NCBI GenBank assembly: GCA_049999805.1
Contig: JBNGIO010006272.1
Coordinates: 82,493-142,637 of the forward strand
Length of the DNA stretch: 60,145 bases
From: Folioceros fuciformis
Lineage: Eukaryota
Reading direction: 5' to 3'
A program made the translations under genes and the position numbers. The notes below the pieces were generated by a model that saw only the letters and a list, made by a program, of their open reading frames with translations, was not told the origin of the DNA and did not search any database. Of this stretch, positions 39,979-44,900 are shown one piece after another; positions within the stretch are counted from its first letter, which is position 1; each line of letters begins with the position of its first letter.

Positions 39979-41170
39979 ATGTTGCTCCGCACGGGCCATG
40001 GAGCTCGGCCATGGCTACCTGCTTCAACCCTAGTCCGTCAGGCCCGTGCGCGGCAGCGGATTGGTGTCAACTGGGATGCTGTGGGACCCGGTAATCGGTC
40101 TCTGCATCATGCCTGTTGTGGATTGCCTCTCTTATCCGCCGGCCTGGTGAAGCCGGGCTCAGGCGTTGGTAGAGGAGGGCTTGCTGGACGGAAGCGGGAG
40201 GGTCGGGTCTGGAGGGTTCGATGTGCGCGGAGCAGTGTAAGCTGGTCCTTGGAATTCTTGTTCTTGAGGGATTTCTTGCTCGTTAGGGTCCCACGTGGCG
40301 TGGTCTTGGACGGGCTCTGTCGTGAGCAGTAATGTGGAGTATGGGGACTTGTTGGAATGTTGTGCTGAATGGCGTTCAGTCCAGGTGCGTGCCCTCCCGG
40401 AATTTGAGATTACATGTCAGAGCCGCAAGCGAGTTTGGATGGGAGTTAGTGATGGAGTTTTTGCAGATGACTCATGGATGTCTCAGAGCACGTTTTCTTT
40501 GTTTTTGTGGTTGATCCGGTTTATTCCTCTTGACCTCTCGCTTTGGTTCACCAGGGCGAGCAAGGGCATGAAGAAGAGGACAGTGACGACGAAGGCCCTG
40601 CTTATGAAAGCGTGGACTATGTATTCTTTTTGGCTCGTAAGAGCTTTTACCAAGTGTGTAGGCGGTTGACCAAGTCTGCTCGAGGATGGCTTCCACCTAT
40701 TATTTCGACACAATTGGTACGGTGGCTTGGACTCTGATTGGCTGGTTTTTCCTTCCCTTTTCCTTCCAGTAGTGAAGGGTTGGATCTCGCTTTCCATGGC
40801 AAGGCAATGCATGCCTTGCTGTTGATGCATTTCGACTTTTGCCCCTTTTTCCGTGGCAGATTTCGTTTACTGTTGGCGGAGTTGTGCTTCTCTCTGCTCT
40901 CTGGGTGTTCAAAGCACTTCTTGAGGTCCGCTTCTATGTTCAACGTGCAAATTTTACAGGCTGTGTGTTATTGTTTCGTATTGTGTTGCTCCTGACAACA
41001 TACGTCGCATGTAGGTTGGGTGTGTGGCTGGAACATTTGCCTTCGTGGCCATTGTGGCAATCCGCATGGTCTGGTCCTTCATTGCTTATTTTGGAGATTC
41101 TTCGGTCAATGGAACCCCGCCTGACGATAAAGGCAGATACCGACGGAGCTTTTCTCAACCAGACTTGTGA
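39979..41170 (+). CDS. SHW1: SHORT HYPOCOTYL IN WHITE LIGHT1-like protein, 4 exons
   Basis: Transit-peptide-like exon 1, then acidic EEEDSDDE-ESVDYVFFLARKSFYQVCRRLTKSARGWLP and two hydrophobic segments (ISFTVGGVVLLSALWVFKALLE; VGCVAGTFAFVAIVAIRMVW). Recognised from memory of At1g69935. Confidence 0.75.
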
Positions 41171-41598
41171 AGTTGTTTGCTTTGTATAGATTGTGGATCC
41201 GCTGCCGTTCAACGAATGGCTGTCACAAATTTTAGGTCACTTGTTAGTTCTTGCTACATCAGTAACATGGCGCTCTGAATCCTCGTGCTCATCACGAATT
41301 CTTCTTCTCCATAGGTAGATGAACGGTGGCACCTTCATGGTGTAATGCCGATATCTGAACTTGGTTGTGACTCGCATGCGGGGCGAATCTTTTCTATTAA
41401 CAGTCCAGTTGAAGCCTTGTGGCCTTCGAGCTGTGGAAGGAAGGTATTGTAGACGCAGCAGCAGTGGACTGGATTGTCAGATATTTGGGCCTGTTCTCCT
41501 TCAAGGATAGCTGACGTTGACGCAAGCATCCATTCTTGGGATGATACATGTCAGACCATACAGCTTAAAAGTGACTGGTAGTAGATGCTTTTGACAGC

Positions 41599-43185
41599 AT
41601 GCCTTCGGGGAAGGCCTCTAGCCCTGGAGTTGTGAGTCTGCCAGATCCATTTAGAGACTCTTATAAGGTGTTGCACCTGGAGAATCACTTGCCTCTCTTG
41701 AGATGTTATGCTCTTCGCCTTATCCCTCCAACAGGCTCTGCGGTTACGTACTATGCAGCCCTCACCATGTCCCAGGTAACCTCCTCTCTTTGCTGCCTCT
41801 GAAAGATATTTCTTTCCATCTAGTTCAATAGGCAAGGGGAGTGAACCTCTGACTCAGTTTCAATAGTTTCTAGTTATCCAGTTATTGAACTTTTGCTTGT
41901 GAAGGTTGCAGGAATGGCTCTGAGAGTGTCATGTGCGACACCTGTGCTCGGTCCAGTTCTGGGAACTCTTGCCGTTGCCTCTGCATCTGTGGCTGCTGCT
42001 CAGGTTCTCAATGCCTGGCTTTTACTAATGTCGAGTATTTTTGTTCTAATGTTGAATAATGTACAGTTCTCTATATCTATGTAGAGCATTTCATTCTATG
42101 GACAATCGGAGGCTCTACAGGTTCTTATGGAATTGTAACAGACACTGCAATAGGCTCGCTAATATTGCAGCACTGTAAATCGTCTGACAGATGTGGTGGT
42201 TTGCAGGTTGCTTTCACCCTTAGAAAGCTGTGCAAAATCTCTACCTGTAAGCAAGCACAACATTTTCTTCCTGGGAAGCACGTTTTGTTCTACGCCGTCT
42301 TCGGAGTTGCGGCATTCAAGGTCGGATGGTAGTCCTTCTTCAGGATTCTGTTTTTCGTTCTTGTTCTGTAATCCATGAGTCAGTGTCGTGATTTCCGCCT
42401 GAACAGGTGCTTGGGGGGAGTTGTCGAAATCTGATGCCAAGTGATGTGGTTCACCCAGGGGCACTCGCCCGTTCTTCTGTTCCAGGTACATATCAGATCT
42501 GGTCCTTCAGGAGGTCTAGATTGGTAGGCATGGCGATCACTGACTGTTTCAAGTGTTTGATGCAGCTAAAGGATCGAAGTACGTTGGCACAGGTAGCGCC
42601 GAGTCCCAAGTAATCAGAGAAGTTTACAAGCGGGATGGCTGTCACCACTGTGGAAAGCGAGCAGGAGACGCGTAAGCATCAGGCATTCGTCGTGGTTGAT
42701 AGTTGCGGAGGCCCCGTTGAATTTCTAGCAGTCGATAGACTGTGCTAAGTGTGTTTGTTGGCAGAATTGCGGATCACATGCCCCCCAATGTCCTGGTTCA
42801 TGGAAGGGGGTGGTCCAAAACGCTTGTCAATGGTGAAGGTGGAGCAGCCGTCCCACGGAGTGGCAAATTCTCCATACGCGCTGAGAATCCGGTGCCCAAT
42901 CCTTTACCTGGTACACATGAACTAAAGCAGCGGTACTTTCCACAGTGCGTGGAATGCATGAAGCTACAAAGCATCTCGCTGCGTCACGGGAAGCTGTCTT
43001 TGGTGTTCCACTTTCGAAGAGCATTTCCTGAAGTAAGCTCATTTCCGGATCGCTGTTCTGCTGTGTGGCCCACAATCGTCAGTGACAATCAACAGGTACA
43101 CGTGTTTGGCGCATTTTGCAGCCACCTTTCCTCGCAGGATTCTGTTTGGGGGCCATGCAGCTGGACGACAGGGAAGATGAAGTGA
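41599..43185 (+). CDS. Uncharacterised membrane-anchored protein with an HNH-like (CxxC-DH-CxxC) C-terminal domain, ~7 exons
   Basis: Exons 41599-41775, 41905-42003, 42207-42320, 42407-42485, 42566-42671, 42765-43033 and 43096-43185 join in frame through GT-AG introns, giving hydrophobic segments then GCHHCG..IADHMPPN..QRYFPQCVECMKLQ. Confidence 0.8.
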
Positions 43186-43578
43186 AGGATGATAACGCTG
43201 GAGGTTGGAAACGTAACGAATAATCGGCCTCTTGAAGCTTGCAAGCGAGTATAGCTGTTTCTTGCTTCCGTAAAATCTCATTAAAGTCGATGTCGCCCGC
43301 CATGCACGGACGTGAGCGACGCATGACTCCTGACTCAGGTGGACAGCTTGTTGGACTTAAAGCCATAGGGCACGTCGCTATCCTTCTCTTCCGTGCATCA
43401 ATAGCTTTCTGCCGAGACGTGGTTTGCGTCAGCGTCAGGGAAAGACGCTGTGTCAGATTCTCATAGTCAGTCTACGCTTTCATCTACACAAAATGCAAAT
43501 TTTCAAATCGTGCTGCCCTCTGTAAGCTCATCGGTCTCCATTGAGACTGTGTGTCGAAACGCCAGGAACGGATGGGCG

Positions 43579-44900
43579 TCACTGATGCCAGAGCGGTAAT
43601 TTAGAGGCTGGGTCCGCTTCGGCAGTCAAGATCCGGGGATTCTACAGCACACCACTGCAGACTGTGAGAATCAGCCTTTCCGTGCTTTGCAGTACAGGAG
43701 AGAAGTGCGAAGCAATCGAAAATACCGGCTTCTCAGACCCCTCTTCCAGATCAAACACATGGACAGTGAGTCTAGCGATTTCCTGAAAGGCAGACTTCTT
43801 CACGGTCTCATCATCACTCTCCAGCTCCTCAAACGCAGCATCAAAGCACTCCTGCCAAAACCTGCTGATCCTGATGTGTGGATCCTTGAGGTACTTGTCC
43901 CAAACCCACCGCACGACCTCAGCTCTTGCCGCCAGCTCCTACAAAAGCAAAAGCACGAAAACTCTAGAACCGCATCGTGCAGAGGCAACTCATGCCACAT
44001 CAAGCAAGTAAGGTGAGACAACACACACCCAGCCAGCGAGTCCGGCTGCCTCCCGCTTCCCGGCTCCAGAAATTCTTGCCTCCCGCCGGTCATCCACCTC
44101 ATTCATCAGCAACGAGGACTAACAAACCAAACACCCGCATCAGCACAATCCCATGCATCACTACCTGTCCAAAAGCTTCTTGAAAACAATGCTCCCGGAG
44201 AACTCACTAGGGCATCCATCCTGTGATCGACCGGCCTGTCGCTGAAGCGATACATCCCCACGGACCATCTGACCGCAATCCCTGCACTTCCAGAGAGAAC
44301 CGACCACGCGGCCAGGCACAGGATGACAGTCAGGCCCCCTGCCTTGTACCTGTTTTTCCCAACCCATTCTCTCGCGGGAGGAGCCACGCTCTCCTTCCCA
44401 TCCTCCTCCATCACGATCCCAAGAGCAATCAATCAACTAATCTACAGCCTCGTACGCCGCAGCAGCCTTGCAGCATGGAATGCACATCCGCAGCTCCCTG
44501 ACCAATCCCAGCTCCCCTGCATCGCGCAGGCCTAGCAGCTGCGTTCCATACTCCTCCTCGCTCGCGCTGCCTGCAAGAACGGGCTACCAGAACCTTCCTG
44601 GAAGAAGCCTCTCCTCCATCTCCAGAAAACCGCAAAGAAAGGGCCTTCTACCCCCGCTCCAAGAAGAGGCCTGATGCGGCCCTTCCGCCGTCAGGACAAA
44701 ATGCTGCTGTGCGCGGTGTCCCCGCCACCAAGCCCTCCCGAGTTCCGGGAGCCGCCGCTGGCCGCATTCTGGGGTCGCCGTGCTGCCTCTCGTCGACCTC
44801 CCGGCCCAGCAGCCTACGACATGATGGCGCCACGCCAGGAGGGCGAGAGCGGGATCCTCCATTACCTGCCGCCACCCAACTATCATTTCCCTCGCATGGC
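43579..44900 (-). CDS. Uncharacterised plant protein, multi-exon; 5' exons uncertain
   Basis: A clear exon at ~43725-43938 reads ELAARAEVVRWVWDKYLKDPHIRISRFWQECFDAAFEELESDD..AFQEIARL and is bounded by AG/GT. Upstream exons were not resolved. Confidence 0.55.

Follow-up and report, generated by a model that had tools for sequence, protein, structure and literature searches.

A 60,145-nucleotide stretch of Folioceros fuciformis DNA, the whole of which we refer to as the window, carries a nuclear gene, belonging to a non-seed land plant, that encodes a 314-aa protein with a C-terminal HNH domain. In the reading that we consider probable, this protein is an NGO1392-like HNH nuclease, built from a captured bacterial toxin tip joined to a set of helices and held in a membrane. 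The gene has seven exons between 41599 and 43223 on the + strand, and its introns are all GT..AG. The exon lengths sum to 945 nt, which is 314 amino acids and a TAA. Exons were placed by following stop-to-stop frames and then by tblastn with a 296-aa homologue, P0003, which was found via exon 6, and with its relatives. P0003 is the best-scoring homologue and aligns to exons 2-7; two others, P0005 and P0004, extend into exon 1. Contigs of the public run X1 are identical to the window and join all six introns at the exact borders of the model with zero mismatches; that X1 is RNA is a presumption, and only a guess. The first-pass annotation, which was made from the letters of this DNA, had proposed seven exons splicing in frame. 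The GT..AG introns, the one open frame and the six joints in contigs of the presumed RNA run all bear this out, and the frame in which those contigs are spliced is the predicted one. The gene end that it gave, 43185, is 38 bases short of the true one at 43223. That position is where a stop is met if the exon-6 frame is continued through the last intron without splicing, and the TAA of the spliced frame is at 43221-43223. An in-frame stop lies upstream of the ATG at 41572-41574.

The exons, all on the + strand, divide the protein into an N-terminal helical part and a C-terminal domain. Exon 1 (41599..41775, residues 1-59) starts with the ATG and encodes an N-terminal helix that is first polar and then moderately hydrophobic near its end. 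Its donor is CAG/gt, the joint 41775/41905 is present in a transcript contig, and the equivalent region of the homologue model is a helix spanning residues 6-60. Exon 2 (41905..42003, residues 60-92), which is matched by tblastn, encodes a conserved LRVSCATPV turn together with the helix of highest hydrophobicity, which is the candidate for a membrane span. Exon 3 (42207..42320, residues 93-130; joint 42003/42207 in a contig) supplies a linker and a third, moderately hydrophobic helix (..LFYAVFGVAAFK). Exon 4 (42407..42485) encodes residues 131-156 and the first base of codon 157, including VLGGSCRNLMPSDVVHPGALARSSVP. Its joints are in contigs, and it is 81% identical to P0003 by tblastn. From PSD onwards, this exon is the start of the domain common to bacterial toxins, and the hhalign alignment described below begins there, at PSD..PGA.A..S.PA. 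Exon 5 (42566..42671), which covers the remainder of codon 157 through the second base of codon 192, has both joints in contigs and encodes a helix followed by the first zinc knuckle, GCHHCG, with C182 and C185. The first-pass coordinates of that knuckle, 42637-42654, are exact. Exon 6 (42765..43032, residues 192-281) encodes a strand ending in D195-H196, within ADHMPPN (42769-42789), then an insert of the length found in eukaryotes, and then the strand and helix RYFPQCVECMKLQ (42931-42969), which contains C253, C256 and Q260. Exon 7 (43122..43223, residues 282-314 and the TAA; joint 43032/43122 in a contig, with a tblastn match) encodes the C-terminal helix PPFLAGFCLGAM and an acidic tail. 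One 153-nt X1 contig spans 42642-42794 with intron 5 (42672-42764) unspliced, at a depth of 17.6, whereas the spliced contigs have about 44. Either the intron is retained in some transcripts or the run contains traces of DNA or pre-mRNA.

In the C-terminal domain, across 130 aligned relatives, the Gly of PGA, the G-C-H-x-C-G knuckle and C-x-x-C-x-x-x-Q are invariant, and P-S, Y-A, D-H-x-P-P and Q..P-Q are nearly so, with the D, H, P and P each conserved in at least 90%. The G, C, H, C and G of GCHxCG are invariant in a 64-member set as well. The window protein carries every conserved residue, including GCHxCG, DHxPP and YPQCxxC..Q. No HNH-type Pfam family matches any of the 64 members at E<=1, none matches the exon pieces or P0003 at E<=10, and no NCBIfam model matches the domain. 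Since neither collection has a model for the clade, the protein looks anonymous in databases.

Structure models place these residues in a recognizable layout. AlphaFold2 modeled the whole homologue P0003 with a pLDDT of 88 and a pTM of 0.80, and a natural domain-only member with a pLDDT of 91 and a pTM of 0.83. In both models, the D-H pair ends a strand (..IADHM), the next strand consists of RFYPQC, and a helix starts with CxxC..Q; this is the beta-beta-alpha-metal layout. When the full model was searched with VIA-align, matches to long helices swamped the list and HNH entries appeared only at ranks 37-38; for that reason the domain was modeled alone. The domain model, compared with 48,161 chains, gave 45 matches at Z>=2, and rows 1-19 are all HNH/EndoVII nucleases. 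The top match is 4h9d_A (Gme HNH; Z 4.6, rmsd 3.2, 72 residues aligned), T4 EndoVII (1e7d) and McrA (6ghc) both have a Z of 3.6, and GVE2 HNH, the HNH domains of Cas9 and IscB, and ZRANB3 (5mkw) are also in those rows. The Z scores, at 4.6 or less, are below the level that the tool deems safe alone. With Foldseek, neither the full model nor the domain model matched any PDB entry at E<=0.001. Because the top rows are uniform and agree with the motif, even with Z modest, an HNH/EndoVII (beta-beta-alpha-metal) fold is supported for the modeled domain. The first-pass annotation had read CxxC...DHxxP...CxxC as a zinc-type HNH layout, and the reading stands up on each side from which it was approached: the His and Cys residues vary little or not at all across 130 homologues, two confident models have the strand-strand-helix arrangement, and the leading structural matches are HNH/EndoVII enzymes.

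The best structural matches of the domain model, Gme HNH nickase (4h9d), EcoKMcrA (6ghc), T4 endonuclease VII (1e7d) and GVE2 HNH (5h0o), align over 66-72 residues with Z of 3.4-4.6 and rmsd of 3.1-3.8. They present the same order of elements, namely CxxC, a strand ending in D/E-H, a second strand, and CxxC at the start of a helix. Their identity to the domain is only 12-21%, and the plant domain differs further in lacking a Pfam HNH match and in having an extra N-terminal segment (PSD..PGA..S.PA.G..YA) and an extra insert. In addition, the polar residue of the plant helix is a Gln located one turn further along than in the solved HNH structures. The canonical HNH helix residue is a His or Asn directly after the second Cys of the second CxxC pair, whereas Q260 comes four residues after that Cys. 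Because of this offset, we can only infer a role for Q260 as a metal ligand.

The relatives in bacteria are toxin tips. In a scan of prokaryotes limited to one genome per species, 46 of 135 pattern matches encode a relative. The domain in these 46 loci has 22-37% identity and is always C-terminal in its ORF (46/46). Fifteen of these ORFs are longer than 400 aa and extend past the 5' edge of the fetched locus. A whole-ORF Pfam scan covered two ORFs: the cyanobacterial one (L003) contains RHS_repeat (1.5e-54), and the Streptomyces one (L020) contains RHS repeats and PT-HINT (5.9e-20). Each is followed downstream by Imm21, with Pfam E-values of 5.4e-31 and 6.4e-7. An Imm21-like ORF is directly downstream in 16 of the 46 loci; a strict gap rule accepts ten of them, and the other six overlap the toxin ORF only because the longest possible ORF start was taken. 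At another locus (L010), an Imm33-like ORF follows (2e-25). Ten further downstream ORFs were scanned, of which eight have no Pfam match and one is DUF7003.

Profile comparison connects these tips to the plant protein. By hhalign, the eukaryotic and bacterial profiles match at 99.9% with an E of 3.7e-32 over 92 columns, with the exon-6 region aligned to bacterial DHQPP...QRLYPQCxxCSxxQ, and the loop between DHxPPN and QRFYPQC is longer in the eukaryotes. The D, H, Q and both CxxC pairs are invariant in 25 of 25 bacterial sequences. Judged by these alignments, the domain is homologous to the C-terminal toxin domain of bacterial RHS/PT-HINT proteins. A likeness to Rhs/CdiA-type toxin tips had been put forward in the first-pass annotation, and it turns out to be real homology on the strength of the 46 loci, the RHS/PT-HINT carriers, the Imm21-like and Imm33-like neighbors and the hhalign match. 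A separate form recurs in alphaproteobacteria (L008, L009, L013, L017, L021, L022, L029, L030 and similar). It has 260-390 aa and consists of the toxin domain and an N-terminal module with a conserved ..Y.PDQPRVPAG...GGQWT.. motif, and after it comes a conserved ORF, about 121 aa long, that has no Pfam match. The module and the following ORF are possibly an undescribed delivery module and its immunity protein.

The published clade to which all of this corresponds is the NGO1392-like, or Tox-SuFu-Nuc, HNH clade. In Table 2 of Zhang et al. 2012 (PMC3482391), that clade has conserved CxxC, DH, CxxC and Q; is listed with HINT and RHS and with the immunity families Imm-SuFu, Imm13, Imm21, Imm33 and Imm38; and is assigned to eukaryotes that include viridiplantae, stramenopiles, metazoa, apicomplexa and choanoflagellates. 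Passages of Zhang et al. 2011 (PMC3113570) place the clade in animals, plants, stramenopiles and apicomplexans. NGO1392 itself, the prototype of the clade, is described by Jamet et al. 2015 (PMC4287609) as a MafB toxin of Neisseria gonorrhoeae with an HNH/EndoVII domain. The passages searched of the His-Me finger classification (PMC5714182) do not mention the clade. Since the motif, fold, carrier proteins, immunity neighbors and phyletic spread all agree with the published description, the motif and context would place our HNH protein in this clade. What the plant protein has in common with Tox-SuFu-Nuc is the CxxC, DH, CxxC and Q set, the HNH/EndoVII fold, and bacterial relatives carried on RHS/PT-HINT proteins with Imm21-like or Imm33-like neighbors. 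It differs in having no secretion, RHS or HINT part, in having N-terminal hydrophobic helices that the bacterial forms examined do not have, and in its longer DHxPPN-QRFYPQC loop. The likeness to NGO1392 is taken from its published description, and no Neisseria locus is among the 46 of the prokaryotic scan. According to those parts of PMC3113570 and PMC3482391, the transfer of the clade to viridiplantae is already in print, and the plant gene is an extension of that known transfer.

Within eukaryotes, the family is widespread. Relatives numbered 68 with P0003 as query and 87 with a lycophyte query, P0018. A profile of 64 members retrieved 1870 cluster representatives at E<=0.001, 942 at E<=1e-10 and 320 at E<=1e-30, and from such counts the family match is judged to be beyond chance. 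The named members include the liverworts Marchantia (the orthologue MPTK1_1g08910), Calypogeia and Riccia; the moss Sphagnum; the lycophytes Diphasiastrum and Selaginella; the streptophyte alga Chlorokybus and many chlorophytes; and, outside plants, oomycetes and diatoms. Some look-alike clusters are labeled Cnidaria. No fern or seed plant is among the named matches of the P0003 (68) and P0018 (87) searches. A quick maximum-likelihood tree was made with 56 rows, comprising 45 family members, the window protein and 10 bacterial domains. In it, the eukaryotes form one clade with a support of 97, and the window protein falls inside a land-plant clade of 20 rows with a support of 99, apart from both the liverwort group and the moss plus lycophyte group.

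Eight long algal and other members contain no Pfam domain beyond the family region. Among those scanned, the only fused domain is in two oomycete proteins of 1561-1711 aa, P0120 and P0143, from Pythium oligandrum and Lagenidium giganteum. In these, the N-terminal helices and HNH domain come first, then a long acidic linker and, at the C-terminus, a HECT ubiquitin ligase domain. Two green algal members, P0217 and P0218 (Chlorella sorokiniana and Micractinium conductrix), are named 'pfkB family carbohydrate kinase' in public records. That name looks like an annotation error because both proteins align along the HNH family, with an E of about 1e-32 to the lycophyte query.

The genomic neighborhood points to a plant. 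A convergent gene on the - strand (43642-43938) belongs to DUF1195 (E 1.9e-18), a plant family of unknown function. Taken together, this neighbor and the land-plant position in the tree make the HNH gene a plant nuclear gene, and as far as the evidence goes, an angiosperm origin is not indicated. The first-pass annotation had likewise called it a plant gene, which the tree position and the DUF1195 neighbor uphold; its framing in terms of angiosperms does not fit the non-seed land plants in the tree or the searches with no named seed-plant match. Several other features of the neighborhood were observed. A CT..AC joint at 43641/43726 in run X1 implies a - strand intron in the DUF1195 gene, and the 3' ends of the two genes are within about 400 nt of each other. 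On the other side, a + strand gene within 40776-41598 has a hydrophobic last exon at 41015-41170 and a TGA stop at 41168-41170, about 430 nt before the ATG of the HNH gene. One 1854-nt X1 contig runs unbroken from 41013 into the HNH gene and extends upstream through a splice, and either overlapping transcripts or read-through of the two genes would account for it. The assembly is broken by a run of N (X in all frames) at about 36976-37086.

The N-terminal helices are where the reading of the protein as a membrane-held nuclease meets its strongest competitor. Kyte-Doolittle windows above 1.2 occur at residues 60-98 and 113-137, and only the first of these reaches the classical threshold of 1.6. 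The first-pass annotation had counted two to three hydrophobic segments; two such regions do exist, and one of them is at the level expected for a span. The best 19-residue window of the exon-2 helix scores 1.81 in the window protein, with a family median of 1.63 and 54% of members reaching 1.6. The third helix, from exon 3, scores 1.30 with a family median of 1.08, and the C-terminal helix from exon 7, with a family median of 0.61, is too low for a membrane span. Only one of four helices reaches the classical transmembrane score, and the other helices have values of 0.6-1.1. Helix 2 is rich in small residues, as in membrane helix packing. The long N-terminal helices and the LRVSCATPV turn (consensus LRVSCATP) are common to members from oomycetes through land plants. 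The bacterial forms examined have no such N-terminal hydrophobic helices: just one of 31 ORFs shorter than 500 aa has a single window scoring at least 1.6. On hydropathy alone, a membrane tether is plausible.

A profile search of the PDB matched only the alanine-rich hydrophobic region, to poly-Ala of mL68 and to the hairpin of the ClyA family (Nhe, MakA), with an E of about 0.003. The region involved is positions 50-169 of alignment A1, and the hairpin it matches is the membrane-inserting one of ClyA-family pore-forming toxins (Nhe L1, MakA). Since both are rich in Ala, Gly and Val, this match is probably compositional, and we have set it aside. The ESM Atlas gave no usable match among named clusters for the N-terminal 140 residues.

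The competitor is a soluble nuclear or cytosolic nuclease for DNA repair or processing, in which the N-terminal helical bundle serves oligomerization or regulation and not anchoring. We give this a real but clearly smaller chance, about one that a cautious reader would keep in mind without adopting. HECT ubiquitin ligases act in the cytosol or nucleus, so the fusion of two oomycete members to such a domain is in its favor. Three of the four helices are below the 1.6 threshold, and the full-length homologue model is compact; at its high pTM of 0.80, that model would fit a soluble helical bundle equally well. The idea is also essentially that of Zhang et al. 2011, where the relevant passages (PMC3113570) consider the eukaryotic copies unlikely to be toxins and propose recruitment as a DNA-repair enzyme. 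Weighing against it, members throughout the family have a hydrophobic helix 2 (median 1.63; window protein 1.81) that is also rich in small residues, and by Pfam there is neither a DNA-repair domain nor a nuclear signal.

We therefore return to the membrane-held nuclease and describe how it would work. An early eukaryote would have acquired the nuclease tip, about 120 residues, of a bacterial polymorphic (Rhs-type) toxin, and within eukaryotes, the tip would have become joined to an N-terminal set of long helices. C182, C185, C253 and C256 are predicted to bind a structural zinc that fastens both strands to the helix. At the end of strand 1, H196 would be the general base that activates the attacking water, and D195 together with Q260 of the helix would hold the catalytic divalent metal. 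With such a zinc site, base and metal site, the enzyme would therefore cut nucleic acid irrespective of its sequence, the mode of action presumed for its toxin relatives. The hydrophobic helical hairpin is the probable membrane anchor of the protein. As no immunity partner is known, this anchoring may serve to keep the nuclease from the cell's own genome until it is needed.

Whether the protein is an enzyme at all bears on a second alternative, that it is a domesticated pseudo-nuclease: a zinc-bound module that binds nucleic acid or protein without cleaving, as described for the Tox-GHH of teneurins. There is a precedent in Table 2 of PMC3482391, according to which eukaryotic Tox-GHH lost its catalytic histidines, and eukaryotes appear to have no obvious immunity partner for the present family. 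The comparison with teneurins (PMC3482391, PMC13018210) is instructive, as far as those sources cover them. Both are HNH-fold polymorphic-toxin tips, and the teneurin, from animals, is a eukaryotic membrane protein of Rhs-type origin. Teneurins retain the YD/RHS shell but not the catalytic histidines, whereas the present family lost the shell and kept the catalytic set. Among the 130 relatives, at least 90% retain the D-H pair and all have the helix Q; all 25 bacterial toxins compared have D, H and Q; and the window protein has D195, H196 and Q260. Retention of the full catalytic set argues for an active enzyme over a decayed relic, and we regard the pseudo-nuclease as improbable. Slightly less probable still is the first-pass suggestion of a nuclease that is targeted to organelles and turns over DNA or RNA of plastids or mitochondria, which draws on the family being common in green algae and early land plants, and against which stand an N-terminus modeled as a confident helix from residue 6 and not as a disordered transit peptide, the acidic residues in the N-terminus of the window protein, and the presence of the family in oomycetes, which have no plastids, and perhaps in the clusters labeled Cnidaria.

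The family amounts to a bacterial warfare nuclease kept with its catalytic residues in nuclear genomes from green algae to lycophytes and in oomycetes and diatoms, and we know of no immunity gene beside the eukaryotic copies. In the literature searched, eukaryotic copies of this toxin clade are discussed only by Zhang et al. (PMC3113570, PMC3482391), and no mention of 'Mp1g08910' and no bench study of the eukaryotic branch was found. To that account we add the N-terminal helices that are absent from the bacterial forms examined, the oomycete HECT fusions and the retention of the catalytic set. A more speculative extension, to which we attach a low probability, is that the eukaryotic clade descends from one ancient capture of a toxin nuclease that is still active, that a membrane hairpin invented in eukaryotes replaces the immunity protein as a safety catch, and that the nuclease, stored on a membrane, is freed only for programmed destruction of nucleic acid. 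It might, for example, clear organelle DNA or foreign DNA from gametes, zygotes or cells that are dying. The family is present in algae, bryophytes, lycophytes, oomycetes and diatoms, and if the extension is true, its apparent absence from named seed plants would track a piece of biology abandoned by seed plants. Should the enzyme be both active and held in a membrane, the question becomes how a cell lives with a toxin-grade nuclease, and for what use, and the Marchantia orthologue MPTK1_1g08910 offers a tractable knock-out system in which to ask it.
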